A stretch of DNA of 64,000 nucleotides from an uncultured Chthonomonadaceae bacterium (GTDB lineage Bacteria > Armatimonadota > Chthonomonadetes > Chthonomonadales > Chthonomonadaceae): contig CAWFQB010000005.1 in assembly GCA_963817895.1 (NCBI GenBank), positions 845,858-909,857 of the forward strand, in the 5' to 3' direction. This document shows positions 1,106 to 51,416 of this stretch, piece by piece. A program made the translations under genes and the position numbers. The notes beneath the pieces were generated by a model. It was not told the DNA's origin. It saw only the letters and a list, made by a program, of their open reading frames with translations, and searched no databases. How positions within the stretch are numbered: the first letter of the stretch is position 1; every line of letters begins with the position of its first letter.

Positions 1106-1212
1106 GGTAGACGGTAGACGGTAGACGGTAGCATCCTTACTTGCAAGTTGTTCCTATCGAACAAAGCTTTCAGTAAACAGGCATTGCTACTGTCTACCAT
1201 CTACCGTCTACC
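1106..1212. repeat. Inverted heptamer array (GGTAGAC)x4 ... (GTCTACC)x4
   Basis: 28-nt arms at 1106-1133 and 1185-1212 with 2 mismatches, 51-nt spacer; begins 3 nt after the trkA stop. Confidence 0.9.
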
Positions 1213-1227
1213 CCGAAGGATTGCATC

Positions 1228-1884
1228 ATGTACATCATCATCGTGGGCGGGGGGAACATCGGTTACTATCTGGCGAAAACGCTGGTATCCGCCCGGCATG
1301 AAGTTTTGCTAATGGAGAAGGATCGGACGCGCTACCGCACCATTTCGGAAGAATTGGGCGAAGTCGTGATGCAGGGCGACGGCTGCGAAGTGGCGCAGCA
1401 GAATCAGGCGGGATTCGGGCGGGCGGACGCGGTTGTGGCCGCGACGGGCAGCGACGACGATAACCTTGTCGTGTGCCAGATGGCGAAAATGGAACATAAC
1501 GTGCCGCGCACCATTTCCCGCGTTAATGACCCGCGCAACGAGTCGCTGTTTCATAAATTGGGCATTGACGCGACGGTGAGTTCCACGAAAATCATCTACA
1601 ATCTTATCGAGCAGGAGGTGGGCGGCGGTGAAGTGATTCCGCTTGCCGCTCTGAACCGGGGCAACATCGAGATTGTGGAAGTGGAAATCGGGCCGCGTTC
1701 TCCGGTGGTGGATCAGGAAATTCGCGCCCTGAAACTGCCCGCCGAGGCCCTGATTATCAGCGTGATTCGCCACGACCACGCCATTCTGCCCGCCGCCGAT
1801 ACGCGCTTTGAAATCGGCGACAGCGTAATTGCCCTTGTGGGCGCGGATCGGGAACACGACCTGCGCGATATTTTTGCGGAGTAA
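1228..1884 (+). CDS. trkA: TrkA-family protein (RCK-N + RCK-C)
   Basis: IIIVGGGNIG, GDGC, ATGSDDDNL, C-terminal TrkA-C (SPVV..IRALKLP..IISVIR). Confidence 0.9.
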   Translation: MYIIIVGGGNIGYYLAKTLVSARHEVLLMEKDRTRYRTISEELGEVVMQGDGCEVAQQNQAGFGRADAVVAATGSDDDNLVVCQMAKMEHNVPRTISRVNDPRNESLFHKLGIDATVSSTKIIYNLIEQEVGGGEVIPLAALNRGNIEIVEVEIGPRSPVVDQEIRALKLPAEALIISVIRHDHAILPAADTRFEIGDSVIALVGADREHDLRDIFAE

Positions 1885-1889
1885 TTATC

Positions 1890-2534
1890 ATGGCTCGGAA
1901 AGCGACACCGCGTAAAATGGATGGGCCGCCGGATTTTTGCGATTACGGCGTGGGCATACTGGGGGAACGGCTGGATAAGATGTTGGCGCATACGGAGGGC
2001 GCGGCAAGCGGCACTCAGACCCGACCCATTCATCAGATGCGCGTGTGGTCCCGCCGTTCCCGCGCCGCGCTGGATGTGTTCGGCGTCTGTTTTGTGGATG
2101 CCGAGCCTGCCGCCTTTGCCGACATTGCGCAGGAGGTAAAAACCGTCACGCGGGCATTGGGCGCGGCCCGTGATTTAGATGTGATGCTGGAAACCATGCG
2201 TACCCGCATGGAGAGCCTGCCGCCCGAACAGCGCGGCGGCGTGGACAGCTTTCTGGACTATTTGCAGGCGCAGCGCAATGACCGACAGCAGGCCGTCACC
2301 GATTCCGTCAAGCATCTGGAAAAAAGCAAACTGAAGCAGCAATTGCAGCGACTGGCAGACAAACACGGCTACCGGTCGGTTACAGTAGAGATTCCCGCCC
2401 CGGAACCGAAAGCGGCAGAACCGCTGACCTCAGCATCCGCCACATCGAAAGCGGCGGAAGCATCCGTTGCAGATGCAGCGGAAGCATCGGTTGCAAAAGC
2501 AACGGCAGACAAAGCAAAGAATGGAACAGCCTGA
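1890..2534 (+). CDS. CHAD-domain protein (N-terminal half of CHAD)
   Basis: IHQMRVWSRRSRAAL and LGAARDLDV motifs; TGATG coupling to the next gene. Confidence 0.85.
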   Translation: MARKATPRKMDGPPDFCDYGVGILGERLDKMLAHTEGAASGTQTRPIHQMRVWSRRSRAALDVFGVCFVDAEPAAFADIAQEVKTVTRALGAARDLDVMLETMRTRMESLPPEQRGGVDSFLDYLQAQRNDRQQAVTDSVKHLEKSKLKQQLQRLADKHGYRSVTVEIPAPEPKAAEPLTSASATSKAAEASVADAAEASVAKATADKAKNGTA

Positions 2535-3598
2535 TGGCAAAATCAAAGTCTTCTGCAAAAGTCAATCCACGTCAACCTGTGCTTGTCAATGCGGCCAAAC
2601 TGATTACGCGGCGTCTGGACGAAATGCTTGCCTACGAGTCCTGCATCGCCGATCCTGACAACGTGTACGAACTCCATGAGATGCGGATTGCGGGCAAGCG
2701 CCTGCGCTACACGATGGAGGTCTTTCAGCCGGTTTATATCCGGTACACCGATGCGGGGCCGGAGTTCGGAACAATGCTGCAAGCCGTGAAGAATTTACAG
2801 GAGCATCTTGGAATTCTGCACGATGCCGATGTGCTGGTTCCGCAGATTCTGGAGCATTTGGGCCGCGTCGTCAAAAAGGGTTACGGCCTGCCTACTGCTG
2901 CCGCGCCCGACAGCATGAATGGTCAAGAGGGCAAGACTAAAGGCGCGAAGCAGAAAAATCATGCCGCTAAATCCGGCAAGCTGCAAGAGGTTCTGCCGAT
3001 TGTAGGCGTCCATCAGGTAGATTACGCGGGTTGTGAGGGACTGCTGACGCTGTGCCGACAAATTCGCGCCGACCGTGACGCGCAATACGCGAAATTGACG
3101 CAGGAATGGCAGCAGATACGCGCCGAACAGGTGTTTGAGCGCCTGCGCGATCTGATCGCAAGGAGTGAGGGAACAGAGGGGAGAAAAGGAGAAAAGGAGA
3201 AAAGGAGAAAAGGAGAAGGGGAGGCAGAAAACGAACCCCAATCGGCAATCGAAAATCGAAAATCGGCAATCCCTTCATCCTTCATCCTTCATCCTTCATC
3301 CTTACCCAATGAGGAGCCGGATGCCGCCAACAGACAAACCCCGCAAGTCCAGCGCGCGCCCGGTGAACCGGGACACGTCGCCGCCGCCCGCCGCCGAGTC
3401 GCGCCCCGCGCCCCGGAAAAAGATGGCGAACCGGAGCCGCAAGGACACAAAGGCAGGCAAAGGCGAGACGCCAGCGCAAGCGCCCGAATTGACAGTTCTG
3501 CCCCTCCCGCCGCCCGAACCGGCAATACGCGCGCTCCGCGACATCCCCGGACTGGGGCCGATACGGATTCGGGCGCTGGAAAAGGCGGGGCTGAGTAG
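2534..3598 (+). CDS. CHAD-domain protein (C-terminal half); reads through a repeat array into the next gene
   Basis: LHEMRIAGKRLRY and LQEHLGILHDADV motifs; the sequence after ~3170 is repeat-derived or low complexity. Confidence 0.8.
   Translation: MAKSKSSAKVNPRQPVLVNAAKLITRRLDEMLAYESCIADPDNVYELHEMRIAGKRLRYTMEVFQPVYIRYTDAGPEFGTMLQAVKNLQEHLGILHDADVLVPQILEHLGRVVKKGYGLPTAAAPDSMNGQEGKTKGAKQKNHAAKSGKLQEVLPIVGVHQVDYAGCEGLLTLCRQIRADRDAQYAKLTQEWQQIRAEQVFERLRDLIARSEGTEGRKGEKEKRRKGEGEAENEPQSAIENRKSAIPSSFILHPSSLPNEEPDAANRQTPQVQRAPGEPGHVAAARRRVAPRAPEKDGEPEPQGHKGRQRRDASASARIDSSAPPAARTGNTRAPRHPRTGADTDSGAGKGGAE
3180..3303. repeat. Compound array (GGAGAAAA)x4 - (AATCGAA/AATCGGC)x4 - (TCATCCT)x4
   Basis: Read directly from the sequence; translated as EKEKRRKG / QSAIENRKSAI / PSSFILHPSS. 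Confidence 0.9.
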
Positions 3599-4193
3599 CC
3601 TGACGCTATTGCGCGACGCGACGCTGGAACGTCTGCTGGTTGTGCCGGGTATGAGCGAAATCAAGGCGCGGCACATACATACGTTTCTCGCCAACGCGCT
3701 TATTCTGACTGAGACGGAAGCAGTCACGAAATCGACGGATGGTGATGGGATTGCAGGGACGCAATCGGTTTCCATTCTGCCGACCACGCCTCTGCTCGAC
3801 GCCAACAGCGGAAACGGCATCGCGGAAGCAGCACAACTATTACCGACATGGCTGGTGGAAATGCAGGTTGCGCGGGATGAGACGGTTGCGCTGCTGACTA
3901 GCCGACACGCCCCGAATTTTCGCGCCCGTCTGCTGCGCGAACTGGTGCGGTTTGCCGCCGGCATCCCCGGATGGCAGCAGGGATTGATGCAGGGCGCGGA
4001 GAAAGATCAGGAACGCGCTTTGCGACGCGTCCGTCGCCTGCGCCTGTCGCTGATGGAAGCGCTGCCGCAAACCGAACCGGATCGCAAAACGCAGTCGCGC
4101 CTGGCCGAAGACATCGCGGAAGCCAGTGACCGCCTGTACGCTTTGAGCGGCCAAACGGAACCCACCCGCAGCACGGAGGACGCGCATGACTGA
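3321..4193 (+). CDS. Helix-hairpin-helix domain protein
   Basis: LRDIPGLGPIRIRAL and LLVVPGMSEIKA HhH motifs; GAGGAG SD before ATG 3321. Confidence 0.75.
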   Translation: MPPTDKPRKSSARPVNRDTSPPPAAESRPAPRKKMANRSRKDTKAGKGETPAQAPELTVLPLPPPEPAIRALRDIPGLGPIRIRALEKAGLSSLTLLRDATLERLLVVPGMSEIKARHIHTFLANALILTETEAVTKSTDGDGIAGTQSVSILPTTPLLDANSGNGIAEAAQLLPTWLVEMQVARDETVALLTSRHAPNFRARLLRELVRFAAGIPGWQQGLMQGAEKDQERALRRVRRLRLSLMEALPQTEPDRKTQSRLAEDIAEASDRLYALSGQTEPTRSTEDAHD

Positions 4194-5253
4194 GGAAGAA
4201 GAGGAGAAGATACGAGATACGAGATACGAGATACGAGAAGGAGAGGAATCCCTCTCAACTCTCAACTCCCTGTATGCGGGCGTGGATGTTGGCACGAACT
4301 CCGTGAAGATGATTGTGGCGGATTTGGGAGAGGGGCGGGCGGATCGCGTCTTTGAGCAGACTATTGTAACCCGGTTGGGCGAGGGGATGCAGGCGCAGGG
4401 CAACCGTTTGCGCGAAGCTGCCATGCGCCGCACCCTTGACGCTCTTGCGGAACTCGTGGACGCGGGACGGGCGCATCAGGCGCGCGCGTTTGCGGCGGTG
4501 GGGACGGCGGCATTGCGAGACGCGGAAAACCGTGACGATTTTTTGCAGAGGGCGCAGGAGCGAATGGGACTGAGCATTGACGTAATCCCCGGCGAGGAGG
4601 AGGCGCGATTGTCGTATCTGGCCGTGCGGCGCGACCCGCACTGGCGCGGGCAGGCGCATTTGCGCGTGATTGACATCGGCGGCGGCAGCACGGAGATCAT
4701 CGAAGGGACGCCCAACGGGAACAACATCGCTTCGCGCATCAGCGTCAACTACGGGGCGGTGAAATTGACCGAGCAGTTTTTGCGCTCCGACCCGCCCACC
4801 GTTCAGCAGTTGGAAGACGCCAATCTTGCCGTACTCAAAGCATTCGCGCGTATTGATGAGGAGGCTTTCCACTCCGCCGATACAGGGAGTGATAAGCCTG
4901 CCGCAACCGCCTTCGCGTCCTCGCAAGAGTATGCGCTGGTGGGGGTGGGCGGAACCGTCACCAATCTCGGCGCGATGGATCAGGGCGGCAAACTGGGCGA
5001 CGAATCGCTCCACGGGCATCTGCTGACAGCCGACCAACTGGGCGAACACATTGACCGTCTGGCGACCCGGACTGTGGCGCAGCGGCTGGAACTCCCCGGC
5101 CTTGATCCACGTCGGGCTGACATCATTCTGGGAGGCGCGATCCTGCTGGCGCAGGCATTGTCCCGTCTGGATGCGCCCTCCCTCGCCATCAGCACGCGCG
5201 GCCTCCGCTGGGGGTTGCTGTATGACCGTTTTCAACAGGAGGTAGATGGGTAG
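4186..5253 (+). CDS. ppx: Ppx/GppA exopolyphosphatase (ASKHA domains only)
   Basis: GVDVGTNS, GTAALRDAEN, GEEEARL, IDIGGGSTE, GVGGT, RADII, GLRWG motifs; ATGACTGA overlap with the upstream stop. Confidence 0.92.
   Translation: MTEEEEEKIRDTRYEIREGEESLSTLNSLYAGVDVGTNSVKMIVADLGEGRADRVFEQTIVTRLGEGMQAQGNRLREAAMRRTLDALAELVDAGRAHQARAFAAVGTAALRDAENRDDFLQRAQERMGLSIDVIPGEEEARLSYLAVRRDPHWRGQAHLRVIDIGGGSTEIIEGTPNGNNIASRISVNYGAVKLTEQFLRSDPPTVQQLEDANLAVLKAFARIDEEAFHSADTGSDKPAATAFASSQEYALVGVGGTVTNLGAMDQGGKLGDESLHGHLLTADQLGEHIDRLATRTVAQRLELPGLDPRRADIILGGAILLAQALSRLDAPSLAISTRGLRWGLLYDRFQQEVDG
4208..4267. repeat. Compound array (AGATACG)x4 - (CTCTCAA)x2 in the ppx 5' end
   Basis: Read directly; translated as IRDTRYEIRE...SLSTLNS. 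Confidence 0.85.
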
Positions 5254-5327
5254 ATGGTAGATGGTAGATCAATCAATCGTGGTTTTCTACTCACCTACCC
5301 ATCTACCCATCTACCCATCTACCTACT
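5241..5327. repeat. Inverted array (GGTAGAT)x4 ... (ATCTACCC)x3-5
   Basis: Contains the ppx TAG stop (5251-5253) and the in-frame ATG 5261 of the HD gene. Confidence 0.85.
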
Positions 5328-5953: not shown

Positions 5954-5958
5954 TCACA

Positions 5959-6348: not shown

Positions 6349-6388
6349 GTTCGCCTCCCTGTTTTGGAAAAAGATATTTTACCCGGCC

Positions 6389-6435: not shown

Positions 6436-6441
6436 GAGGAT

Positions 6442-6989: not shown

Positions 6990-6992
6990 TTT

Positions 6993-7116
6993 TTACCGGA
7001 TGTTGAAAACACCCGGCAGAAAAGTGCAAGCGTCCTGCGGACGCGGGAATCTTGATAAAGAGTCGCGTCCGCAGGACGCTTGTTTTGTTGAGACGGGGAT
7101 TTTCAATCCCCGGTAA
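6993..7116. repeat. REP/MITE-like nested palindrome
   Basis: Outer imperfect IR TTACCGG..TTGAAAA / TTTTCAA..CCGGTAA; perfect 19-bp inner IR at 7027-7045 / 7064-7082. Confidence 0.8.
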
Positions 7117-7250
7117 GCCCCGAATGACTCAAACGCTTTAAAGTTGAAGCGCTTTTCCATCGGTGATAAAGAGGAACTTCTTGCTGTCGTGCCGAAACAT
7201 ACGCGCAGATGTTTTCAGCAAAATGCGTTACGTGGGGAGTGAAAAGACTT

Positions 7251-8765
7251 GTGACGAACTCGAAAGTGTGCGTGATCGGGCTGGACTGCGCCGCGCCCGA
7301 ACTGGTATTTGATTTGTGGGCCGATTTGCTGCCTAATCTGTGCGGCCTGATGCAGTCCGGCATGTATGGGCCATTGGAGAGTACGACGCCTCCGATTACC
7401 GTACCCGCGTGGATGTGCATGATGACCGGCAAAGACCCCGGCACTCTGGGCATTTACGGCTTCCGCAACCGCCGCGACCACTCCTATGAGGGGCTTGCGT
7501 TCGCGTCCGGCAAAATGGTACAGGAACCGACGCTGTGGGATGTGCTGGCGGAACACAGCAAGCGTACCATCGCGCTCGGCGTACCCCTTACATATCCTCC
7601 GCGTCCCATTCACGGCCTGCTTGTCACCGATTTTCTGGCTCCCAATGTGGACAGCGATTACACCTACCCGCCGGAACTCAAACACGAAATCAAAGAGGTG
7701 GTAGGCGAGTACCTGTTCGATACCCGCGAGTTTCGCACGGAAGACAAGGCGAAACTGCTGGATGATATTTACACCATGACCGCCCGCCGCTTTCAACTGG
7801 CGCAACATCTGATAACCACCAAGCCGTGGGACTTCTTCATCATGGTGGAAATGGGGCCAGATCGAATCCATCACGCCTTCTGGAAGTATTTCGACCCCAA
7901 GCACCCCAAATACATCCCCGGGAACCCCTTTGAACACGCCATTCGCGATTACTACATCGCCCTCGACGCGCATATCGGGCAACTGCTTTCCACACTGGAC
8001 GAAGACACGCGCATTTTGATTGTGTCTGATCACGGCGCGAAGCGAATGGATGGCGGCCTGTGTTTCAACGACTGGCTGATACAGGAGGGCTATTTAACGC
8101 TCAAGGAAACGCCCACTCCCGGCACAAAGTTTTCGCCCGCGCTCGTGGATTGGACGCGAACCAAAGCGTGGGGCGACGGGGGCTACTACGGACGTTTGTT
8201 CCTGAACGTGCAGGAGCGCGAACCGCAGGGCATTGTGCCGCCTGAAGACGTGGAAGCCCTGAAAGTGGAACTGACCACCAAACTGGAAGCCTTGCCCAAT
8301 GAACACGGCAAGCCACTTGGCAACCGCGTTTTCCGCCCCGAAACGCTTTACGCCCAATGCCGCAATGTCGCGCCCGACCTGATCGTATACTTTGGCGATC
8401 TGCACTGGCGCTCTGTGGGCAGTCTGGGCCATCCTCAAATCTGGACACACGACAACGACACCGGCCCCGACGACGCCAACCACGCGCAGCACGGCATTTT
8501 CATTATGGCAGAAGAAAAGAAAAGGAGAAAAGGAGAAGAGGAGAAAAGGAGACCCAATCCACAATCCACAATCCACAATCCACAATCGGGTTTGTCCCTG
8601 TACGATGTCGCGCCGACGGTTTTGAACGCGATGGGGATTGCGGTTCCGGCAGGGATGGGACGCAACGCGATTGGAACTGCGCCGACTCTGCGCCCGGACA
8701 GCGCGTATAGTGAAGAGGAAGAGGCGGAACTGGCGCGGCGATTGGAAGATTTGGGATACTTGTAA
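7251..8765 (+). CDS. Alkaline-phosphatase-superfamily phosphodiesterase / nucleotide pyrophosphatase
   Basis: VIGLDC, STTPPITVPAW, TGKDPG, DRIHH, VSDHG, LYDVAPT, LARRLEDLGYL. Confidence 0.9.
   Translation: MTNSKVCVIGLDCAAPELVFDLWADLLPNLCGLMQSGMYGPLESTTPPITVPAWMCMMTGKDPGTLGIYGFRNRRDHSYEGLAFASGKMVQEPTLWDVLAEHSKRTIALGVPLTYPPRPIHGLLVTDFLAPNVDSDYTYPPELKHEIKEVVGEYLFDTREFRTEDKAKLLDDIYTMTARRFQLAQHLITTKPWDFFIMVEMGPDRIHHAFWKYFDPKHPKYIPGNPFEHAIRDYYIALDAHIGQLLSTLDEDTRILIVSDHGAKRMDGGLCFNDWLIQEGYLTLKETPTPGTKFSPALVDWTRTKAWGDGGYYGRLFLNVQEREPQGIVPPEDVEALKVELTTKLEALPNEHGKPLGNRVFRPETLYAQCRNVAPDLIVYFGDLHWRSVGSLGHPQIWTHDNDTGPDDANHAQHGIFIMAEEKKRRKGEEEKRRPNPQSTIHNPQSGLSLYDVAPTVLNAMGIAVPAGMGRNAIGTAPTLRPDSAYSEEEEAELARRLEDLGYL
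8516..8587. repeat. In-frame compound array (GGAGAAAA)n - (CAATCCA)x4
   Basis: Translated as EKKRRKGEEEKRRPNPQSTIHNPQS between GIFIM and LYDVAPT. Confidence 0.9.
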
Positions 8766-8770: not shown

Positions 8771-8972
8771 AGTGAGAGTACATTTCACTCCCGAACACAT
8801 TCTTGCCAGGGGTTGAAAACCCCTGTCTACACGGCCTGCGGCCAAGCGTCCTTCGGACGCAAATGCTTATTTTGCAGTGAATCGCGTCCGAAGGACGCCT
8901 GGCGGAACGCCACTCAGACGGGTATTTTCAATACCCGGAAAAATGTGTCCGGTAGTGAAATGTACTCTCACT
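8771..8972. repeat. REP-like palindrome (8806-8938) nested inside a second ~31-bp inverted repeat
   Basis: Outer arms AGTGAGAGTACATTTCACT... / ...AGTGAAATGTACTCTCACT; the inner element resembles 6993-7116. Confidence 0.8.
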
Positions 8973-8989
8973 CTCACCTGAAATTGACT

Positions 8990-11878: not shown

Positions 11879-11934
11879 TCAAAAAGAACATTGTAGGGAC
11901 ACAACAAGTTGTGTCCCTACAATGTTCTTTTTGA
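11879..11934. repeat. Perfect 27-bp palindrome with GTAG-REP-like core; probable bidirectional terminator
   Basis: TCAAAAAGAACATTGTAGGGACACAAC-AA-GTTGTGTCCCTACAATGTTCTTTTTGA, between convergent genes. Confidence 0.85.
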
Positions 11935-20792: not shown

Positions 20793-20898
20793 AGTTGATA
20801 GTTGATAGTTGAGGGTTGATAGTGGCAGCTATTCGACAGCGTACTGGATGATACAGTATGGCTCGAGTTATCAACTATCAACCCTCAACTATCAACTA
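20793..20898. repeat. Inverted heptamer array (AGTTGAT)n ... (ATCAACT)n
   Basis: Variant unit TTGAGGG/CCCTCAA is mirrored in both arms; the array includes the TAG stop of the 20896 gene. Confidence 0.9.
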
Positions 20899-24126: not shown

Positions 24127-24629
24127 AAAAGCGGTTTCCTCCCTCCGTCGCGCAAACTCAGACGCGCAGGGCAAGGCTGTCAACTCGCGGCTTCCCAAAC
24201 AATCTTCCCGATGGCTTCTAAGATAAGGATAAAGAATAAGAGCGGAAGAGAGGCCCGTCGCGCGGGCGGAAGCGAAAGCGAAACAGCGTTCCTCATACGC
24301 GCCGCCTCGTGGCGACAGGTGAAACAAAACAAACACATAGAGAATAAGAGCAGTCGCGGCGTTCAAAACAGGAACCATCAACCGTATGCCGCGCGAACGG
24401 GTAACGCGGTATTATACCGTCTGAACTACGTCCTGTCAAACGGCTTTAATCCGAGTGTGAAAACAGGAAGCCTTCAACGAAGCGCCCTGAACCCAATACC
24501 GCATACCCTCTTTGATTCAGTACGGAAGAAACAGGCTGTTTTGTCACATGGGGAGGCGTACTGTTTCATAGATAGAGCCTGCATTGGGTACACTGTGTTT
24601 GCGCGTTATATCCTTTGCGGAGGTTCTGC

Positions 24630-33593: not shown

Positions 33594-33884
33594 AGAAAAG
33601 GAGAAAAGGAGAAGAGGAGAAGAGGAGAAAGAAAACATCTGACGTTGTGAATTTTGCGGCAGGGGTAAGGAAGGCGGGCAGAACTGCCGATACTGTAAAC
33701 GATTCGAGTTCACCTTCCTTTCCTGGGTGGCAGGCTTTTCTCTCCTTTTGCCTGCCACTCTTTTTTCGCCTGCTTGTTTCTGTATACTCCTCTTTCCGGT
33801 CTTTTCTTTTGCTTTTTTTCGTGTGTTTGGCGTATTTCGCGGTTCCCCCTCTCCTCTTCTCCCCCTCTCCTTTTCTCCTTTTCT
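33594..33884. repeat. Inverted octamer array (GGAGAAAA)n ... (TTTTCTCC)n
   Basis: 35-nt arms at 33594-33628 and 33850-33884 with 2 mismatches; abuts the stop of the 33883 gene. Confidence 0.85.
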
Positions 33885-37565: not shown

Positions 37566-40169
37566 CTACTTACCTGTGAACTGTTTGAGTTCGGCTTCGG
37601 TGAGTTTGTCTTTGCCATCCTTGCCGATTTGTATGGCGTTTTTGCCCAATCGGACAATCACTTCATCACCAACGGAGGAGTACGCGGCAAGACTGGGAAC
37701 GGCGCGTAACAGGGCGAAATGCGCGTCGCTGTACGCCTGTATTTTCAGCAGGCCGTTGGCTTTGGCGTCGTAGGATTGATCCTGCCAGATGTTGCTGGCC
37801 TGCCGGTAGAAGGTTCGGTCATGGACGGCCTGTACCACAACCGCGTTGTTGTCGCCGGAGGATGCGGAGAATACGCCCAAGCTGTTGCCTTGCGACCGCG
37901 CCCCTCCGAAGTTGCCTGTTTTGGCTTTGCCGGCGAACACGGCTTGCGGCAGGTTGACGCTACCTGTACCGATGGAACCGCCTGCGCCCCCGCCTCCCAA
38001 ACCGCCGGTGCCACCGCCGCCACTCGAAAGCGCGTAGACGCCCCCGTTCGCCGACTGGTAGCGTGGCGCGACTGTATCAGCGTTTTTGTAGTCTTTGGCC
38101 CGCGCGCTCTGATCGGTCACGCCTAATCCGGTTGCGCCGTACTGTGCCGCGCGACCGGCCACTTCCCGGCGCAAAATCTGGCTGTTCGCTTCGTCCAGTT
38201 TGAACAGCGAACCGTCCCTGCCGCGCAGACTGAGGGCGCGTTGTTCGCGGTCATCCACGAGGAATGAGGTGTACTCCGTGATGATACCGTATTCCCGCGA
38301 CAGGCGCACAATCTCATCAATCAGTTCTTTGTTCCCCTGCGGGCTTGTCGCGGCGTTCAGCCGCAGTTGGTCAATTAAAAAGCCGATTTTGCGCTGCGCC
38401 CATAAACGCGGCACAAAGCCGTTTTCGCCGCCCGCGCTGCCGAACGGCGCGCCCGCTTTGAATGTCTCCTGGCTGTCGTTCGCCATTCCTGCCAGATGGA
38501 CTGTTCCCGACCTGTCGCCCCGGAACCGCCCCGTAATCACCAATTGTGACCCTTTGAACAGGTCGGGCAGTTGTTTGGGAAAAACATCGTACACGTCCCC
38601 GCCATCGAACGCCAGTTTCACATTCGACAGCACAGGCGAGGCGACTTTGGCGAAGAAGGAGGATACTTTCACTTCCACATCCTCTTCCGGCTTGATAAAA
38701 TCGCTATCTCCCCGCTCCTGTTCGCCCAATCGGTCCAGAAACGGCACATTCACGTCGAACCCCAACCCGAAGCAGAAGATTCGCGCCTGCGTATTAACCT
38801 CAGCATCCCCCGCCTTCGCTTCTTCTAATTTCGTCTCTTTCAACCCCGCCAATCGCGTTTGATGGGAATTGCCTTTTCCCTCTTCCCTCTTCCCTTTTCC
38901 CTCACCCGCCTGCGCCAGATGTTTCGCGCCGTTCAGTTCGCGGGCGTGCTGTAAAATGGTGTTGATGTTGGTTTCGCCCACAGTGGGCAGGCCGTCCGTC
39001 AGGAATACCACCATCTTTTGGGTTCCCGCATCGTCCTTGACCAGTTTCAGGGCGGCGCGGAGAGCCTCATCAATGTTGGTTCCGCCCGACGCTTCGATGT
39101 TCTCCACGAACTTGCGGGCGCGGCTGACGTTCGCCTCGCTTGCCGGTTCCAGCTTGGGCATCAGGATTTCCGCCGACTCGCTGAAGGTAATCACGTCGAA
39201 ACGATCCTCTTTATGTAGGCTGTTCAGGCAATAGAGGAGGGATTTTCGCGCCTGTTCGATCTTCTTGCCCGCCATCGAACCCGTTCTGTCCAGCACGAAA
39301 ACAACCTGTTTGGGCAGAATTTTTTCTTTGGGAATGGACACGCGGGGCGAGGCAAGCAGGACAAAATAGCCGTCCCGATCCCCGCTCTTGTACGTCAGCA
39401 GGGACATGCCCACATCCTCATTGTTTGTGCTGAAATACAAACTCAGGTCGCGATCCGAAGCGTCGTTGCTGCCCTCATAAGAAGCGGACGCGCTGTGTTC
39501 ATCGGTTTTGCGCACCGCAAGCTCGTGCGTGGGCGAATAGATGTTTTTGATGGGCGATTGCGTGGCGAGTTTGATGCTGACAACCGCTGTTCCCACCGGA
39601 CGCGCGCCGAAACGGGACGTGGAAAGCGGGTAGGCGTATTTGCGCAGGCCGTTTTCGGGTTTCAGCACTTCCGTATAGCGCAGGGAGATTTTGCGTTCGC
39701 CATGCGCGGGTATGGGATACACGCTGATTTTCACCAGACCGCGCCCGACGTATTCCAATAGAGCCGGGTCGCGCCGCCGCCGCACAATCTCCTCGTAAAT
39801 GCCCCGCGCCTCTTCCCGCGTTAAAATTTTGGGTTCCAGCGTCCGGTCGCCAACGGTCATGCTGAACGCGGTCGGGCTTGCGCCCTCCGGCAGGGGGTAC
39901 AGATACGTGCCCTCCTGCTCCACGCTGCTGTCGTTGACGAAGGTTTGCTCCACAACGGTTTCGGCAACCGCGTCGTGAATGGTGGCGTTGACCCGCAAAT
40001 CCTTCACGTAAAACGGCTGCAACAGGGGTACAGGAACGGGAATGGGATGCGTCGGGCGAACGTGGGCTTCAGGAAACAGGATTCCCTGCGCCTGTCCGGG
40101 CTGCGCCATGCCTGCCGTCGCCAGCAACGCGGCAGTGGTCCCTAAAAATGATTGAAAACGACGGTTCAT
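37566..40169 (-). CDS. Secreted VIT + VWA domain protein
   Basis: VIT (VEQTFVN, YLYPLP); MIDAS DRTGS, GGTNI, FLTDG; RLWAQRKI, ITEYTSFLV. Confidence 0.92.
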   Translation of the reverse strand: MNRRFQSFLGTTAALLATAGMAQPGQAQGILFPEAHVRPTHPIPVPVPLLQPFYVKDLRVNATIHDAVAETVVEQTFVNDSSVEQEGTYLYPLPEGASPTAFSMTVGDRTLEPKILTREEARGIYEEIVRRRRDPALLEYVGRGLVKISVYPIPAHGERKISLRYTEVLKPENGLRKYAYPLSTSRFGARPVGTAVVSIKLATQSPIKNIYSPTHELAVRKTDEHSASASYEGSNDASDRDLSLYFSTNNEDVGMSLLTYKSGDRDGYFVLLASPRVSIPKEKILPKQVVFVLDRTGSMAGKKIEQARKSLLYCLNSLHKEDRFDVITFSESAEILMPKLEPASEANVSRARKFVENIEASGGTNIDEALRAALKLVKDDAGTQKMVVFLTDGLPTVGETNINTILQHARELNGAKHLAQAGEGKGKREEGKGNSHQTRLAGLKETKLEEAKAGDAEVNTQARIFCFGLGFDVNVPFLDRLGEQERGDSDFIKPEEDVEVKVSSFFAKVASPVLSNVKLAFDGGDVYDVFPKQLPDLFKGSQLVITGRFRGDRSGTVHLAGMANDSQETFKAGAPFGSAGGENGFVPRLWAQRKIGFLIDQLRLNAATSPQGNKELIDEIVRLSREYGIITEYTSFLVDDREQRALSLRGRDGSLFKLDEANSQILRREVAGRAAQYGATGLGVTDQSARAKDYKNADTVAPRYQSANGGVYALSSGGGGTGGLGGGGAGGSIGTGSVNLPQAVFAGKAKTGNFGGARSQGNSLGVFSASSGDNNAVVVQAVHDRTFYRQASNIWQDQSYDAKANGLLKIQAYSDAHFALLRAVPSLAAYSSVGDEVIVRLGKNAIQIGKDGKDKLTEAELKQFTGK
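38872..38903 (-). repeat. In-frame heptamer array (AGGGAAR)x4 inside the VWA domain
   Basis: Translated as EGKGKREEGKG, within an apparent insertion before RIFCFG. Confidence 0.7.
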
Positions 40170-40341
40170 GGCTTGTTTCTCCTTACGTGATAACCGTGAC
40201 CCACGCGACGGAATGAATTCTACAAGTGTTGAAAGCCTGTCTGCTGCAACGGAATGAATTCCTTTGCTATGGGCGCTTCGCGCCAAATGTCCTTCGGACA
40301 TAACTCTCTTTGCAGAGACTCGCGTGTCCGAAGGACACTTA

Positions 40342-44939: not shown

Positions 44940-45314
44940 TTGGTGCAAATACAGCAGGATTTGAAATATGACGGCAATGGATTGATTCCCGCCGTGGTGC
45001 AGGATGCGGCCAATGGCGACGTGCTGATGGTCGGTTATATGAACCAGGAAGCCGTGAAACGGACGCTGGAAACAAAGCGCGTTACTTTTTGGAGTCGTTC
45101 GCGTCAACAATTCTGGGTGAAAGGTGAAACTTCCGGTAACGCGCAGCACGTTATAGAACTCTATGTGGACTGCGATCAGGACTGTCTGCTCGTGAAAGTG
45201 GAACAAGTCGGCGCGGCCTGTCACGAAGGCTACCGTTCCTGCTTCTTTCGCCGCATTGCCCCCGATGGCAACACACTCGAAACCATTGGCGAACCGTTGA
45301 TGAAGAGTTACTAG
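44940..45314 (+). CDS. hisI: Phosphoribosyl-AMP cyclohydrolase
   Basis: [36 protein letters not shown]. Confidence 0.96.
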
Positions 45315-45433
45315 GTTTTAGGGTTCTATGGTTTTAGGGTTTTAGGCTGAAAGTATCTATGTGCAACCTGTAGTAGAAGTGTTGGTCTACTACTACAATC
45401 CTAACCTGAAACCATAGAACCCTAAAACCCTAA
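45314..45433. repeat. Inverted octamer array (TTTTAGGG)n ... (CCCTAAAA)n
   Basis: Arms at 45314-45338 and 45405-45429 share the variant unit TTCTATGG; starts in the hisI stop codon. Confidence 0.88.
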
Positions 45434-45465: not shown

Positions 45466-48400
45466 ATGTCCGCTTTGTCCGCTTTTCGCAGGAAGTTTGG
45501 TTCGCGCCGCCCGCTCGCTGCGGTTGTGGGAATGAGCGCGTTGTTTGGTGTTGGCAGTGTCGGACGGCCCGCGCAGGCCGCCGCGCCGCATTATTCCGAC
45601 ATCCTGCCCCTGAGCAAGATAAAGCCGGGAATGACGGGCTATGGCCTGACCACGTTCAAGGGAACGACCATTTCGCGCTTTGAAGTGACGGTTATCGGCA
45701 TCATGCGCAAGGTCAACAACGGGCATGACCTGATTCTGGTGCGAATGAAGGGCGGCCCGATTACCGAGCGGGGCGCAAACCTCATTCACGGCATGAGCGG
45801 CAGCCCCATCTATATCAACGACAAGTGCATCGGCGCGTTTTCGCAGGGCGAACAGTGGCCCAAAGAACCCATCGGCATGGTCACGCCCATTGAAGACATG
45901 CTGGAAGCCTGGGACCCCGACATCCCGCAAACCCCACCCTATTTCCAGCCCGCCGATAAGCCGCCCACACCCGGCGGCGGCAATCCGTCACCGACGGATA
46001 AGAACAGACCGGGAGACAGGGAGACAGGGAGACAGAGAGAGGGAAAAGGAAAAAAGGAAAAGGATAAAGGGAAAACGGCTCTATCGTCTATCAACTATCA
46101 ACTATCAACTCCTGAAACGATTACTCTGCCTTCGCCGATTACAGTGGGGAACAGGCGGATTAAAACGGTTGTGCTGAACGCCGGTCCGAACAGCAAACTG
46201 GCGAGTCGGTCTGATTGCGCCGTGCTGCACCGGGCGACCACATTCGCGTCCGTCAGTGGCGTGACCGAAAAGGAAGTGGCGCTTTTTCAGAAGGAGTTGG
46301 ACAAGCGCGGGTTTGCCATGACTTTGCAGCAGGCTCCCGTGATGGGCGCGGGCAAGGCTAATATTCCCGCCTCGACGCTGAAGCCGGGTTCCGTATTCGG
46401 CACGTTTCTGTCGTCGGGTGATGTGGAGTTCGGCGCGTTTGGAACCGTGACGTACCGCAAGGGCAACCGTATACTGGGATTCGGGCATCCGTTTATGGGC
46501 ATGGGCGCATTGAACGCGGCTACCACAACCGCATCCGTCGTGGATGTGTTTTCTGGCTTGCAGTCGTCGCATATCATTGCCGAGGCCGGCCCGGTTGTCG
46601 GCACATTTACGCAGGATCGCAACTTTTCCGTTGGCGCGGAATTGGGACGCAAGCCGTTTCAGATTCCGTTTACGATTACCGTCAACGACGAAAGCACGCA
46701 CCGCATCCAAACGTTCCATACGCAGATGTTCCAGCATCCTGACCTGACCGCCGCCCTGATGGGCATGATCGGACAGGCCGCCGTGTCGCGCATCCACAAC
46801 ATGCCGGGTGACATGATGGCGCGCGTGACCACAACGGTCGAGGCGGGCGAGGTGGGCAAAACCACGCGAACCAATCTGCTGTTCGACGCCGATGATATTT
46901 CGCAGGCCGTGACCAAAGACCTGACCGACATTACGGGAATCATCAGCGGCAACCCGTTTTATCCCCTGCCGATCAAAGGCGCGAGCATGACCGTGAACCT
47001 GTACAGCGGGCATAACACGGCTACCATCGAGCGCATTTTCCTCAAGCAGGGACGGTATGAACCGGGGGATACGCTGGACGTTGGCGTTGTGCTGAAACCC
47101 TATCGCCGCGACCCGATTTACAAAAACCTGACGCTGAAAATCCCCTCCGACACGCCAACGGGACGCTACGCCCTTGCCGTGCGCGGCGGCTCGGCAACCG
47201 TGACGCGCATTGGCCCGTTCATTCTGTCCGGGGGTGGGGCGCAGGACACGCAGGCTCCGCCCGTCAACGTGCGGCAGATGCTGGCCCGTTTGAGCGCGCG
47301 GGAAACCAATACCGATATGGTAGCGCGTCTTGTCCTGAACACCGCCGCGCCCGCAATTGAGGGTGAAAAACTGTCGCAACTGCCGCCCAATCTGGCCGTG
47401 CTGATGCGCAGCGACCGCAATTCCGGCGTTCGTATCGAGCGCGACGAAGTGCGAACAACCGCCCCGACGGATTACGTCGTGAGCGGGACGCAGCAGCTTG
47501 TCGTGACCGTCGTGCGCAAGAACACGCAGGAGATACCCGGCCCGGTCACATTCCCAGGTTCGTCCGGCGCTGCTACCTCCACCGGCAGCAGCTCCTCCTC
47601 GTCGCTCCAGAGCGGCAGCAGCAGCGCGTCCGCGCAGGACGATGACGCCAAAGCCACTCCCGACACCGCGAACATGGGTTTATTGCAGTTCGGTAACGAG
47701 ACGCAACGCTGGCTGGACGAACTGACAGGCGCGAAAAGGGTAAATGAGACAACGGCAGAGCAGGACCCACCCGTAAATCCGCTGAAGCCGCCCGTTACCG
47801 ACGACAAAACCAAAACGGACAAGAACGCCAAACCTAAAAACGGCAAGCAGGCAGTTGTGGTTCCGCCTGCGCCTGTGGCTGTCGCGCCCCCTGTTGTGAC
47901 CGGCGACACCAAACCCGCCACCACGCCCAATGACAACGAACCCGTGAAAATCGTCGCCCGCCAACTGCAGGTATGGCGGCAAACGGGCGCGAACGGCTTC
48001 GCGTCCGGCAAGTTCATGGGAACCAGCGTGGCGGCAACCGGGGAACTGCGGCTCGCGTCGCGCCTGCGCCGCCTTGCCACCACAAACGAAACCTACATCT
48101 GGTCAGTGGTCACGGATAATCAGGGCAATGTGTACGCGGGAACCGGCACGACGGGTAAAATCCTCAAAGTGGACGCGAACGGCGGCCTGAAAACCTTCGC
48201 GCAACTGCCCATCGTGTCCGTGCAAAGCCTGTTGTTGGCAAAAGACGGCACGATGTGGGCGGGCAGCAGCGTGAAGGGCCAGTTGTTTCACGTCAAGCAG
48301 GACGGCACGTATACCCTGACCGCAACCCTGCCGGAAAAATACATCCTTGCGCTGGCTGAAGACAGTCAGGGCAATGTGTACGCGGGTCCGGGCGGGGGAG

Positions 48401-50130
48401 GAAACATCTATAAAATTCCCGTCGGCTATTCCGCGCCCGACCCGACCCGCACAGACGCGCTTAAACCGTTTGTGAAAACGCCCGCCGACTACATCACGTC
48501 CATAGCCGTTGACGGCAAGGACAACCTGTATATGGGTACGGGCAGTGAGGGAATCGTTTATCGCATTACGCCGGACGGCAAAAGCAGCGTTCTGTACGAC
48601 GCCAGAGAAAACAGCGTCACCGCGCTTGCCGTAGACAGCAGCGGGATTGTGTACGCGGGAACCGGGCCAAAGGGTATCCTGTACCGTATTACGCCGGACG
48701 GATTGGCGACCGTGGCGTATGACCGCGCCACCAGTTTCTACACGGGCCTGCGCGCGGCGAAAGACGGAACCCTGTACGCCACAACGGTCAATGCCGCGTA
48801 CCATATCTTCCCGTCTACCGCCGACCCGACACATCCGGTTGTTCAGCCCTTAGACAATCCCCGCGACGTGGACTTTCTGACCCTCGGCCTGCTGCCAGAC
48901 AACACGCCGATTATCGGCACGGGCAACATCGGCGAATTGTACACGGCGGCGGGAGAAAACACGCCCAACCCGGATGGCAGGCCAACGGGCGCAGGCACTT
49001 TTGAAAGCGTAATTCATGACGCCAAACTGGTCAGTCAGTGGGGCGCGTTGCGCGTCAACGCGGCACTGACGAATGGCGCGAAAATGGCGGTTGCCACCCG
49101 GACAGGCAATGTGGCGGAACCCGATGCGACATGGAGCGACTGGAAAGCGGCTGCGCCTGTGGGCGGCAACGAGAACCGAATTACCAGTCCGCCCGCCCGG
49201 TTCATCCAGTATCGCCTGACGCTGATTCCCGCGTCGGGTTCATCCGGCGTGTCGGCTGCGAACATGGCGGGAGTGGATGCGCCTTCAGTGCGCGAAGTGA
49301 GTCTCTCGTACATGCCGCGCAATCAGGCTCCCCGCGTGGGCTTCGCGTCCCCACAGGGGGGCGAACGGTGGGCCAAATCGCAGACGGTTCGCTGGCTGGG
49401 ACTGGACCCGGACGGCGACACGCTCAGTTATGAGTTGTACTATTCCAACGACGGCGTAAACTGGAAATCCCTGCCCAACGCGGCAGCGGCTTCCACTTCC
49501 TCCGCTGCTACTCCTGCCGCTGTCGCCGCGTCCGGCGCGAGTGGAAGCGCGGCTGCGCCCGCGCTGTCGCTGGACGAAATTCAGAAGCGATTGGAAGCGC
49601 AGAACGCGCCCGAATCCGTGCGGCGCATGGTGCTGGAATCGGCGCAGCGGCGAATGGCGGCAAATGGGGGAAGCAGTAATGCAGGGGGAATCGGCTCCCG
49701 CGAAACCTCCAAAACGTGGGACACCAAAACCCTGCCCGATGGCGCGTACTGGCTGAAAGTGGTGGCTTCGGATTACGCGAGTAATCCCTCCGACCCACAA
49801 ACGGCGCAGGCGATTTCCGAGCCATTCGTAATCTGTAACAGCCTGCCGCAATTGACCCTGAGCGGAACGCCGTTGCTTGGCGCGGATCGGCGCGTCACCC
49901 TGAGTGGCAGCGCGTCACAGGGTTTGATTACGATTACGGCTGTGCAGTACCGCATAGACGGCGGCGACTGGCTGGCCGCTGTTGCCAGAGACGGCCTGTT
50001 CGACTCTACTAACGAGGGTTTCGGATTGACCACCCTGCCTCTAACACCGGGCAAGCACACCATCGAAGTCGCCGCCTTCAATGCCGCCAACAATAAAGCC
50101 ACCCAAAAAGTCGAGGTCACTGTGCCGTAA
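45466..50130 (+). CDS. Secreted SpoIVB (peptidase S55) - beta-propeller - Ig-like multidomain protein
   Basis: GMSGSP, GFGHPF; repeated D..GNVYAGTG propeller blades; C-terminal YRIDGG..DG.FDS. Confidence 0.88.
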   Translation: MSALSAFRRKFGSRRPLAAVVGMSALFGVGSVGRPAQAAAPHYSDILPLSKIKPGMTGYGLTTFKGTTISRFEVTVIGIMRKVNNGHDLILVRMKGGPITERGANLIHGMSGSPIYINDKCIGAFSQGEQWPKEPIGMVTPIEDMLEAWDPDIPQTPPYFQPADKPPTPGGGNPSPTDKNRPGDRETGRQREGKGKKEKDKGKTALSSINYQLSTPETITLPSPITVGNRRIKTVVLNAGPNSKLASRSDCAVLHRATTFASVSGVTEKEVALFQKELDKRGFAMTLQQAPVMGAGKANIPASTLKPGSVFGTFLSSGDVEFGAFGTVTYRKGNRILGFGHPFMGMGALNAATTTASVVDVFSGLQSSHIIAEAGPVVGTFTQDRNFSVGAELGRKPFQIPFTITVNDESTHRIQTFHTQMFQHPDLTAALMGMIGQAAVSRIHNMPGDMMARVTTTVEAGEVGKTTRTNLLFDADDISQAVTKDLTDITGIISGNPFYPLPIKGASMTVNLYSGHNTATIERIFLKQGRYEPGDTLDVGVVLKPYRRDPIYKNLTLKIPSDTPTGRYALAVRGGSATVTRIGPFILSGGGAQDTQAPPVNVRQMLARLSARETNTDMVARLVLNTAAPAIEGEKLSQLPPNLAVLMRSDRNSGVRIERDEVRTTAPTDYVVSGTQQLVVTVVRKNTQEIPGPVTFPGSSGAATSTGSSSSSSLQSGSSSASAQDDDAKATPDTANMGLLQFGNETQRWLDELTGAKRVNETTAEQDPPVNPLKPPVTDDKTKTDKNAKPKNGKQAVVVPPAPVAVAPPVVTGDTKPATTPNDNEPVKIVARQLQVWRQTGANGFASGKFMGTSVAATGELRLASRLRRLATTNETYIWSVVTDNQGNVYAGTGTTGKILKVDANGGLKTFAQLPIVSVQSLLLAKDGTMWAGSSVKGQLFHVKQDGTYTLTATLPEKYILALAEDSQGNVYAGPGGGGNIYKIPVGYSAPDPTRTDALKPFVKTPADYITSIAVDGKDNLYMGTGSEGIVYRITPDGKSSVLYDARENSVTALAVDSSGIVYAGTGPKGILYRITPDGLATVAYDRATSFYTGLRAAKDGTLYATTVNAAYHIFPSTADPTHPVVQPLDNPRDVDFLTLGLLPDNTPIIGTGNIGELYTAAGENTPNPDGRPTGAGTFESVIHDAKLVSQWGALRVNAALTNGAKMAVATRTGNVAEPDATWSDWKAAAPVGGNENRITSPPARFIQYRLTLIPASGSSGVSAANMAGVDAPSVREVSLSYMPRNQAPRVGFASPQGGERWAKSQTVRWLGLDPDGDTLSYELYYSNDGVNWKSLPNAAAASTSSAATPAAVAASGASGSAAAPALSLDEIQKRLEAQNAPESVRRMVLESAQRRMAANGGSSNAGGIGSRETSKTWDTKTLPDGAYWLKVVASDYASNPSDPQTAQAISEPFVICNSLPQLTLSGTPLLGADRRVTLSGSASQGLITITAVQYRIDGGDWLAAVARDGLFDSTNEGFGLTTLPLTPGKHTIEVAAFNAANNKATQKVEVTVP
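46007..46110. repeat. In-frame compound array (GGGAGACA)x3 - (GGAAAA-type)n - (CTATCAA)x3-4
   Basis: Translated as PGDRETGRQREGKGKKEKDKGK..LSSINYQLST. Confidence 0.88.
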
Positions 50131-50324: not shown

Positions 50325-50480
50325 ATGGAACTGTTCTCCGGCAGTGACCGGTATCAAGAATTGGTGGAAAAGTTGATGATAAGCGGTTTGAGCGCGGAAG
50401 AGACGCAGGAAATGGAACGGTTGGGGTCACAAATGGATGCGGAAAGCGCGCTTTTTATGATGCGGCGTTACAGCGGATGA
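50325..50480 (+). CDS. Small antitoxin-like hypothetical protein (possibly frameshifted)
   Basis: MELFSGSDRYQELVEKLMISGLSAEETQEMERLG... Confidence 0.35.
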   Translation: MELFSGSDRYQELVEKLMISGLSAEETQEMERLGSQMDAESALFMMRRYSG

Positions 50481-50507
50481 AAATTATGGCGTCCGTGCAA
50501 TAAATTG

Positions 50508-50561
50508 CGCGGCTGTGTCCTTCCCTGCGGGTGGACGCCCGCAGGGAAGGACACAGCCGCG
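50508..50561. repeat. Perfect 24-bp hairpin (REP-like)
   Basis: CGCGGCTGTGTCCTTCCCTGCGGG-N6-CCCGCAGGGAAGGACACAGCCGCG. Confidence 0.8.
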
Positions 50562-50669
50562 TGTTTCAACTCACGGCACTCACAGGGTGCATGTATCTGT
50601 AAATACACGCAACTTCGCGCCGCGCCTCCTGTCCAACAAAGCATAGAAACAAATTATTCATTAAAGCCT

Positions 50670-51308
50670 ATGTCCTTACTGGTTGAATTGGAAAATGTGG
50701 AGCATCGGTTCGGATTGCGGCGCGTGTTTTCGGGCGTGAGTTTGACGGTGCGGACAGGCGAAGTCGGACTGGTGATGGGCGCAAACGGCGCGGGCAAAAG
50801 TACGCTGCTCAAAATCATCGCCGGATTGCTGCCGCCCGCATCGGGAACGGTTCGCGTACAGATGGATGAACGCGATCTGGACGCGCGAACACGGCGGCAA
50901 ATCATCGGCTATGTCGCGCCCGATTTAACTCTGTACCGCGAATTGACCGGCGTGGAAAATCTGGAGTTTTTCGCCCGTTTGCGCGGTGCGCCGCTGAAAC
51001 ATCAGCAGTTGCGCGACGTGTTGGAACTGGTAGGATTGCGAGGGCGGGGGCGCGACCTGGTTGGCGCGTATTCGTCGGGGATGCGGCAGCGATTGAAATA
51101 CGCTTTTGCCTTGATTGGAAACCCGCCCATTCTGCTGCTGGACGAACCAACCGCCAATTTAGATGTAGACGGCATGGCAATGGTGGAGCAGGTCATCGCC
51201 GCGCAGCAAACCCGTCCCGGCGGCGGCTTAACCATTGTCGCCACCAACGAGCCGCGTGAGGAGCAATGGGGAACGGTACAGGTACGATTAGGAAAGGACG
51301 AAGGATGA
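50670..51308 (+). CDS. ccmA: Heme exporter ATPase CcmA
   Basis: GANGAGKST, YSSGMRQR; heads the ccm operon. Confidence 0.9.
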   Translation: MSLLVELENVEHRFGLRRVFSGVSLTVRTGEVGLVMGANGAGKSTLLKIIAGLLPPASGTVRVQMDERDLDARTRRQIIGYVAPDLTLYRELTGVENLEFFARLRGAPLKHQQLRDVLELVGLRGRGRDLVGAYSSGMRQRLKYAFALIGNPPILLLDEPTANLDVDGMAMVEQVIAAQQTRPGGGLTIVATNEPREEQWGTVQVRLGKDEG

Positions 51309-51416
51309 AGGATGAAGGATGGAGCAGAAACACTCCTTACGACTTCCTTTCCTGCGCTTAAAACTAATGTCGGACAAGAAGAGAATTCATCCTTCATCCT
51401 TCATCCTTCATCCTTT
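51293..51416. repeat. Inverted heptamer array (GAAGGAT)x4 ... (ATCCTTC)x4 spanning the ccmA/ccmB junction
   Basis: Arms at 51293-51321 and 51388-51416; contains the ccmA TGA and the ccmB ATG. Confidence 0.92.

Follow-up and report, generated by a model that had tools for sequence, protein, structure and literature searches.

We analysed a 64,000-nucleotide stretch of DNA (the window; G000:C5:845858-909857) from the genome of an uncultured Chthonomonadaceae bacterium, G000, a 7.48-Mb assembly of 57% GC in 14 contigs that is 81% complete. Tandem arrays of 7- or 8-nucleotide units (words) are dispersed over the window and form the arms of short elements, which we compared with the four-helix-bundle (TIGR02436) genes that similar arms enclose elsewhere in the genome. 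An earlier note on the window had listed 11 arrays, and all were recovered within a few bases by TRF and from the sequence (Table 1). The basic element consists of about 4 units, a core of 55–66 nt and about 4 mirrored units; in mixed elements the two arms carry different words. As the note had described, a word keeps its side: TCATCCT is a right arm at 3272 and 51386, CTATCAA at 20869 and 46088, and GGAGAAAA is a left arm at 3180, 8518 and 33594. The window elements folded far below shuffles. No four-helix gene or other enzyme candidate for the arrays was found in the 49 of the 202 open reading frames (ORFs) of the window that were scanned, in agreement with the note.

Table 1. Array elements of the window, their setting and their counterparts
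Position	Element	Strand	Words and arms	Setting	Counterparts in relatives or elsewhere in G000
1106..1212	mirror hairpin	.	left (GGTAGAC)n 1106-1133; core ~51 nt; right arm 1185-1212	starts 3 nt past stop codon of first trkA-like gene	G002: same word, homologous core, orientation reversed (z 7.2); G001: GGAGAAA-type arms
3180..3303	mixed composite	+	GGAGAAAA 3180-3217 left; CAATCGR 3239-3271 and TCATCCT 3272-3303 right	within reading frames: CHAD gene 2534-3598; ORF 3165-4193	G002: GGGAACA / CAATCGG / TCATCCT / CCCTCAA
4192..4268	mixed pair	+	GAGATAC 4208-4238 left; CTCTCAA 4252-4268 right	in frame, N-terminus of Ppx/GppA gene	G002 (site 4208): GGGAACA / CCCAACA, short junction retained
5241..5323	mirror hairpin	.	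GGTAGAT(G) / (C)ATCTACC	left arm contains ppx stop codon	word family flanks four-helix gene at G000:C1:1459269
8518..8587	mixed pair	+	GGAGAAAA then CCACAAT	in frame, phosphodiesterase gene 7209-8765	loop without array in six more distant relatives; different composite in G002
8771..8972	nested element	.	short GTGAGAGT arms around REPIN-type element 8803-8941		REPIN-type family flanks RAYT-like Y1 transposase gene at G000:C5:223662; G002: AGGTGTC heptamer hairpin
20793..20898	mirror hairpin	.	AGTTGAT / CTATCAA; one variant unit mirrored in both arms
33594..33884	long composite	.	GGAGAARA arms 33594-33630 and 33844-33884 around 220 nt; interior ends in degenerate 9/10-mer arm, ~33818-33844, GxxExxY-associated class (by likeness to flanks of GxxExxY genes)
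38872..38903	lone arm	-	AGGGAAR; purine-rich strand is the sense strand	in frame in VIT/vWA gene 37566-40301
45314..45433	mirror hairpin	.	GGGTTTTA / GGTTCTAT	begins on PRA-CH gene stop codon	word family flanks four-helix gene at G000:C2:440296
46006..46110	mixed composite	+	GGGAGACA, AGGGAAA, then CTATCAA	in frame in ORF 45466-50130
51294..51415	mirror hairpin	.	GAAGGAT / ATCCTTC; core ~65 nt	ABC ATPase gene-ccmB junction

The whole genome was scanned for exact arrays (at least 3 copies) and for approximate ones, with a triplet shuffle as the null. Exact arrays numbered 557 with period 7 and 174 with period 8; there were 20, 31 and 7 with periods 5, 6 and 9, and 0 with periods 10–14. The approximate scan gave 1419 period-7/8 arrays in 127 units, compared with 0 in the shuffle. 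Widening it to periods 9 and 10 raised the total to 1836 arrays and 609 pairs (284 mirror, 317 mixed, 8 direct). In all, the genome carries roughly a thousand small clusters of repeats, many of which are hairpins. Three, four and five units were present in 448, 748 and 291 of 1595 arrays, respectively. The fixed orientation that the note had proposed from the window extended to the genome: among 476 neighbour pairs within 100 bp, 355 ran from a G-arm to a C-arm and 1 was reversed, the remainder being same-sense (nested, 53) or containing a unit without G/C skew (67). No unit was seen as a left arm in both orientations, and the order was broken in 6 of 521 multi-array clusters. The rule is stated more exactly as purine-G on the inward strand, which was the case for 35 of 37 common heptamers, with purine-G on the outward strand in 1.

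Mirror elements cluster at gene ends. Of 284, 128 started between -10 and +9 nt from a stop codon, and only 40 of 229 mirror pairs with a gap of more than 25 nt lay in an open frame of 200 codons, indicating that they are mostly intergenic hairpins. They are inserted in stop-start gaps without target-site duplication, which was not found in 268 elements (3.0%, versus 3.5% in shuffled pairs) nor by eye in the empty-site alignments. Of 157 mixed left-right pairs with short gaps, 137 lay in open frames. Among 138 in-frame mixed pairs, no more than 2 of the five-prime arms and 1 of the three-prime arms contained a stop codon, whereas the hypothetical mirror partner of the three-prime arm would carry one in 89 of the 138 (cf. 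115 of 268 mirror elements). Mixed pairs therefore arise in good part because reading frames purge arms with stop codons, and this selection accounts for much, though not all, of the pairing. The mix-and-match pattern in the note was thus real and beyond slippage, with a simpler cause in good part than the one it had sought. The same 138 pairs write low-complexity inserts of 20–40 residues into many enzymes, and so are a source of protein change.

Arms and cores evolve differently. The AGTAGTC elements of G002, one of the two congeners of G000 (the other is G001), were examined as a set of 35, which includes one likely duplicate and two irregular members; 32 had a core of 54–62 nt, and the cores clearly formed one family. 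These cores were about 35% off consensus, with substitutions spread evenly over A, C, G and T (0.33–0.36). In the inner 25 nt of the arms, 50 of 1750 positions departed from a pure repeat and the two arms mismatched at 16 of 875, values that are biased because the elements were chosen by near-perfect units. The same pattern was observed in 20 elements of genome G023, 14 of which had cores of 65–66 nt with 73% identity to consensus (substitution by base: A 0.30, C 0.32, G 0.27, T 0.17). Core families tracked related words in both genomes; 140 of 294 cores joined no family. Furthermore, a variant unit recurred in its own opposite arm in 118 of 215 cases, versus 27.5% in other elements of the same word. 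Because the cores form fixed-length families and variant units are mirrored between arms, whole elements are copied, with arms retained or renewed while cores drift. Cores may also be hypermutated, perhaps at birth, as their divergence (35%) was close to that at fourfold sites between the species (34.5%, 161 genes), but codon bias or older diversity of the source could account for this. No conserved core structure was found, as alignment folding gave no pairs, and single cores folded just 1–3 kcal below shuffles. The G023 family showed a preference for one strand (11 of 14); the G002 family had no clear preference. Two other origins of the cores were rejected: that they are captured genomic DNA (46 of 233 matched elsewhere, and the top matches inspected were other elements), and adenine-biased mutagenesis like that of diversity-generating retroelements (DGRs), since the substitutions show no adenine bias.

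The main feature, overlooked in the earlier note, is the replacement of motifs at the same sites between species. Clusters of G000 were mapped to orthologous sites in an 870-kb sample of G002, and 61 of 69 had an array there. At these 61 sites the word was the same in 4, within one base in 10, partly changed in 9 and wholly changed in 38. Of 28 sites that were mirror elements in both species, 19 differed in length or at more than a single base, both arms together. In the reverse mapping, 29 of 90 G002 clusters had no array in G000; some of these were clean empty sites, which the note had proposed looking for in relatives, and others held decayed arrays or other hairpin classes. At gene ends, G002 had an array at 41 of 61 positions where G000 has one, and at 39 of 279 where G000 has none. 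Closer strains were sought in metagenome contigs, where none was found (best 41% identity). In the literature searched, mostly open papers, we found no report of such same-site turnover.

Words have swept through single genomes. Exact triple matches to GAGATAC numbered 93 in G000 and 0 in four relatives. In a comparison set of 41 genomes, AGTAGTC had 281 matches in G002, 1 in G000, 4 in G001 and 0 in the 38 others, and AGAAAAC had 205 in G023 and 0 in the 40 others; GGTAGATR had 44 in G000, 6 in G002 and 0 in three others. When AGTAGTC sites of G002 were sought in G000 (33 tried after dropping 2, 28 mapped, words read by eye), 11 carried GGTAGAT-type arms, 1 the one-base neighbour GTAGACA and 7 other words, and 9 carried none. 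GGTAGAT-type arms thus occupied 11 of the 19 occupied sites, versus a genome-wide baseline of 11 of 268 (4%). At most of these 11 sites the core was no nearer to its orthologue than chance, therefore suggesting that family members were re-copied onto sites that were already occupied. One word had arisen at many sites where the congener has unrelated words, in support of the note's view that the arrays do not come from local slippage.

Both TIGR02436 genes of G000 (C1:1459269 and C2:440296) lie outside the window, and both are bracketed by facing 8-mer arms, a PF05635/TIGR02436 gene within a terminal inverted repeat in each case. The note had linked such arrays to four-helix-bundle genes, and the link held well beyond this genome. 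By eye, 15 of 20 four-helix genes of relatives had purine-rich inward arms on both sides; at 2 the pyrimidine strand was inward on at least one side, and 3 were unclear or one-sided. Across phyla, an array was present on at least one side of 66 of 80 four-helix genes (the best 80 of 576 genome matches, all of one subfamily and not independent of each other), compared with 7 of 143 control windows. Period 7 accounted for 76 of 101 of these flank arrays, and the inward strand was purine-rich in 83 of 86. Of 129 four-helix loci, 75 were periodic on both sides, and the two flanks matched in 58 of the 75, versus a shuffled mean of 9.5. The distance between flank words shrank as the identity of the four-helix proteins rose.

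In several genomes the flank word of a four-helix gene is also a dispersed word: AGTAGTC in G002, AGAAAAC in G023 and GGTAGATR in G000. The G002 gene flanked by AGTAGTC (C8:32005) and the G000 gene flanked by GGTAGATR are 73% identical and lie at different sites. Neither G000 cassette was present at the orthologous sites that were inspected, in G002 and G001 for both cassettes and in G021 for one. Nine foreign cassettes were tried, and the four that could be mapped were all absent in G000, where one site was empty and three held gene-less elements. The cassettes change site, and gene-bearing and gene-less forms alternate at the same sites. In accord with these findings, the note's suggestion that the arrays are non-autonomous relatives of a repeat-flanked cassette fits, as the arms are shared with the four-helix cassettes. 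A model of the four-helix protein (pLDDT 94) matched 2GSC, 2RLD and the accessory protein Avd (TM 0.83 to 4DWL); the solved relatives 2GSC and 2RLD have five chains each. The G002 site corresponding to one G000 cassette (L415, G002:C24:82670-83580) is occupied by a toxin-antitoxin-like pair of genes with a single heptamer arm after it.

On balance, and with little more than even confidence, we favor the reading that the arrays are arms of non-autonomous hairpins of the arm-TIGR02436 gene-arm cassette, served in trans by a ring of the four-helix protein and re-copied onto occupied sites. A five-subunit ring would bind the single-stranded purine-G repeat strand, one unit per subunit, so that arms of 4–5 units and a single polarity for all words would follow. 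The ring may pair a donor element with a target whose word is identical or related, where putative host enzymes would cut, repair and join, copying either a single arm or the entire element over the resident copy. As four-helix genes arrive or evolve, each would bring its own word, and a genome would therefore accumulate many words of one polarity. Within genes, single arms would survive only if free of stop codons, hence the mixed pairs, and template switching in the hairpin could keep the arms mirrored while the core drifts. We regard as more tentative, and rather doubtful at present, the specific proposal that the TIGR02436 pentamer recognizes single-stranded heptamer arrays by their sequence and directs the rewriting of chromosomal repeats in place, so that a shift in its specificity would have hundreds of arms overwritten without a transposase or reverse transcriptase of its own.

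Several observations weigh against the cassette reading. The three commonest words of G000 (GAGATAC, GAAGGAT and GGAGAAAA) flank no resident four-helix gene, although two of them flank four-helix genes in relatives, and only two such genes were found in an assembly that is 81% complete. G001 has 77 arrays per Mb and no four-helix gene. Array presence in the other genomes was judged from samples of 15–60 kb; no array was seen in them for 9 of 13 genomes with the gene, while in the other 4 a sampled word equaled or nearly equaled the flank word, and 9 of 10 genomes without the gene had no sampled arrays. The third G002 gene was expected to have a G002-enriched word and carries GGAGAAAA instead. 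Two four-helix loci of relatives, L032 and L053, have the pyrimidine-rich strand turned toward the gene on one side or both, as exceptions to the rule or nested elements. The co-variation of word and protein may be plain co-inheritance, a residue-to-base association test was confounded by kinship, and the 80 cross-phylum loci are best matches of a single subfamily. Stop codons explain only part of the in-frame mixed pairs (90 of 138). We know of no catalytic activity for the TIGR02436 family.

Some of these points favor a different account, which we consider unlikely and yet the strongest of the alternatives: the hairpins are spread and homogenized solely by host recombination, slippage and template switching (ectopic gene conversion among arrays) and maintained by selection for an RNA function, for example as a stem at gene ends that stabilizes the transcript or is cleaved by RNase III. 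The four-helix gene would then be cargo whose arms are converted like any other. The crowding of mirror elements at stop codons and the strong folding of the window elements are consistent with it, as are the arrays that G001 retains without a four-helix gene and the abundant G000 words without one; the Coxiella intervening sequence (IVS), a stem with heptamers, is cleaved by RNase III (PMC4990558). It leaves unexplained, however, why the four-helix family is enclosed across phyla, and it does not account for the agreement between sites and the word of a single protein lineage. Moreover, in a genome-wide scan for ORFs between inverted repeats, judged by eye, the cleanly enclosed short ORFs, besides insertion sequence (IS) transposases, belonged to only a few families, four-helix, GxxExxY and DUF559-like, each with its own repeat class.

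These other families raise the question of another resident enzyme. All four GxxExxY genes of G000 (C3:444820, C6:254503, C8:26422 and C1:43930) are bracketed by facing 9/10-mer arrays, and three of the words in these flanks also rank with the most frequent dispersed 9/10-mers of the genome; the GxxExxY genes and their 9/10-mers would form a system parallel to the four-helix one. Two genes at G000:C1:437952 and C5:310805, which from their sequence we take to be DUF559-like, have their own inverted repeats and form a further hairpin class. It is improbable, in our assessment, that one such enzyme (GxxExxY PD-(D/E)xK-type, DUF559-like nuclease or RAYT-type Y1) moves all hairpin classes while the four-helix protein merely protects or chaperones the arms. 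Hairpin classes do nest and replace one another at the same gaps, a three-layer composite with GxxExxY-class outer ends exists in three near-identical copies, and GxxExxY genes are numerous in array-rich genomes (4 in G000, 6 in G001, 3 in G002 and 7 in G023). Against this, every enzyme gene has its own repeat class, and no GxxExxY match was found in G034 and G032, although heptamers flank genes in both and arrays occur in their samples. Y1 transposases occur in 31 of the 41 genomes, including those whose samples are array-free. A link of RAYT/Y1 to the heptamers was rejected: none of the three Y1 genes of G000 is bracketed by heptamer arms, and two have repeats of their own, which also occur in the window. 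The three composite copies (G000:C1:544011, C14:108899 and C1:156440) vary in unit number and are a recent duplication of the entire composite.

The note had also suggested telomere-like addition at both ends of a break and had proposed looking for reverse transcriptase or HUH genes within arrays. Enclosure was found for the four-helix genes, not for Y1, and the sole reverse transcriptase of G000 is retron-like. We consider it very improbable, and largely refuted, that telomerase-like or reverse-transcriptase-templated addition, or DGR-like retro-copying with the four-helix protein as Avd partner, produced the arrays. The G-rich strands do face the center, the protein shares the Avd fold, and all three genomes of the genus have a reverse transcriptase. 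However, a reverse transcriptase was detected in 17 of 41 genomes (not in 24), and its presence does not track the arrays: none was found in array-bearing G019, G023, G032 and G034, and 8 genomes with the enzyme showed no sampled array. Reverse transcriptase was thus rejected as the driver. The fixed-length core families, the mirrored variant units and the equal substitution of A, C, G and T also argue against addition, and one enzyme would need dozens of templates. A GGTAGAT hairpin separates the retron-like reverse transcriptase gene from its BRCT-domain neighbor (L075:2730-2830; G000:C6:134178-134274).

Independent local slippage or an assembly artefact has next to no chance of being correct: unit number does differ between copies and arms, but slippage is refuted because words were replaced convergently at many sites whose congener words are unrelated, GAGATAC has 93 matches in G000 and 0 in four relatives, the polarity is 355 to 1, and an artefact appears to be excluded solely because homologous elements occur in independently assembled relatives.

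Parts of this picture have been published, as far as the accessible text of the papers cited here goes: convergent four-unit heptamer pairs at stop codons in Xanthomonas, heptamers beside the S23p gene in the Coxiella IVS, and unexplained heptamers in Beggiatoaceae. Among the closest known systems is that of REPINs, hairpins built from repetitive extragenic palindromic (REP) sequences, and RAYTs, the REP-associated tyrosine transposases (PMC3116915, PMC3686654). There, as here, conserved ends in inverted orientation enclose a spacer of fixed length and low conservation, a cognate gene has the same repeat flanks, bursts are strain-specific, and repeat classes differ at orthologous genes ('orthoswitch'). 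The arms here are tandem 7/8-mers rather than palindromic REPs, and the cognate four-helix gene lacks the HUH transposase fold. The cassette moves between sites, single arms are exchanged within genes, and the Y1 transposases of G000 have other repeats. The elements thus work like REPIN-RAYT but fall outside it, having no palindromic REPs and no HUH gene.

The heptamers GGGAATC of Xanthomonas and GGGGAYT (STRR-type) of Nostoc also have a mode of four units and start near stop codons (Rehm et al. 2015, PMC4692102). Those of Xanthomonas form convergent inverted pairs, 70 of them in Xcc, and a related species retains them at the same positions. They differ in having one G-tract word per genome, read as a G-quadruplex, and the accessible text describes no gene link, multiple words or motif replacement. 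G-tracts of at least 3 per unit are absent from the commonest G000 units (GAGATAC, GAAGGAT, GGAGAAAA and AGGTTGTT), and most words of this genome lack them. The 23S rRNA IVS with the S23p gene has the same protein family inside a terminal inverted repeat, with tandem GACAGAT heptamers upstream of the gene in Coxiella (Warrier et al. 2016, PMC4990558); here, by contrast, cassettes lie between protein-coding genes rather than in a 23S rRNA helix, and gene-less forms number hundreds. The TAACTGA arrays of Beggiatoaceae are likewise intergenic, of 2–6 units, fixed in orientation, patchy across phyla and without a known mechanism (MacGregor 2015, PMC4679880), but they use one word, form nearly no inverted pairs and are read as translational control; the terms 'helix bundle' and 'S23' are absent from the accessible text. 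The DGR protein Avd has the same fold as the four-helix protein, is pentameric and positively charged, and binds RNA (10.1101/2023.10.23.563531), whereas neither a DGR reverse transcriptase nor adenine-specific mutagenesis is present here. Miniature inverted-repeat transposable elements resemble these elements in being short, non-coding and intergenic with terminal inverted repeats; they differ from the elements here, which have no target duplication, no DDE partner and cores far more diverged than the ends. The accessible text of a survey of GTAG/CGTC repeats (PMC3733652) mentions neither four-helix genes nor heptamers, and in a search limited to mostly open papers we found none linking the TIGR02436 family to dispersed arrays.

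Bacterial genomes are known to have heptamer repeats in excess, for which there is no mechanism, and the large TIGR02436/S23p family lacks a function. The G000/G002 pair ties the two together, as proteins 73% identical with different words occupy the same sites with their arrays, providing testable protein-word pairs. A rewriting ring, if it exists, would be a new class of mobile-DNA machinery, could explain the heptamers of cyanobacteria, Xanthomonas and Beggiatoaceae as well as ORF-bearing rRNA intervening sequences, and, as a small ring reading a 7-base code and retargeting recombination, would be of mechanistic and tool interest.

Other repeats and genes were also observed in the window. 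The REPIN-type hairpin of the family flanking the Y1 gene at G000:C5:223662 recurs at 6993-7116, and an inverted repeat at 50493-50576 has the same outer words as the sequences that flank a second Y1 transposase gene, G000:C2:68237. Additional perfect inverted repeats, REP-like and non-heptameric, lie at 63413-63599 and 11879-11934. An aminoglycoside 3-N-acetyltransferase family gene (Pfam Antibiotic_NAT) is located at 8813-9829, two tandem acyltransferase-3 genes at 24615-27384 are an apparent duplication, and an IS630-like element at 40375-41462 has its helix-turn-helix (HTH) and DDE_3 transposase halves in two frames. A defence-like block at 57236-61344 comprises a type I restriction HsdR-like gene and an HTH-IrrE-DUF4411 gene.

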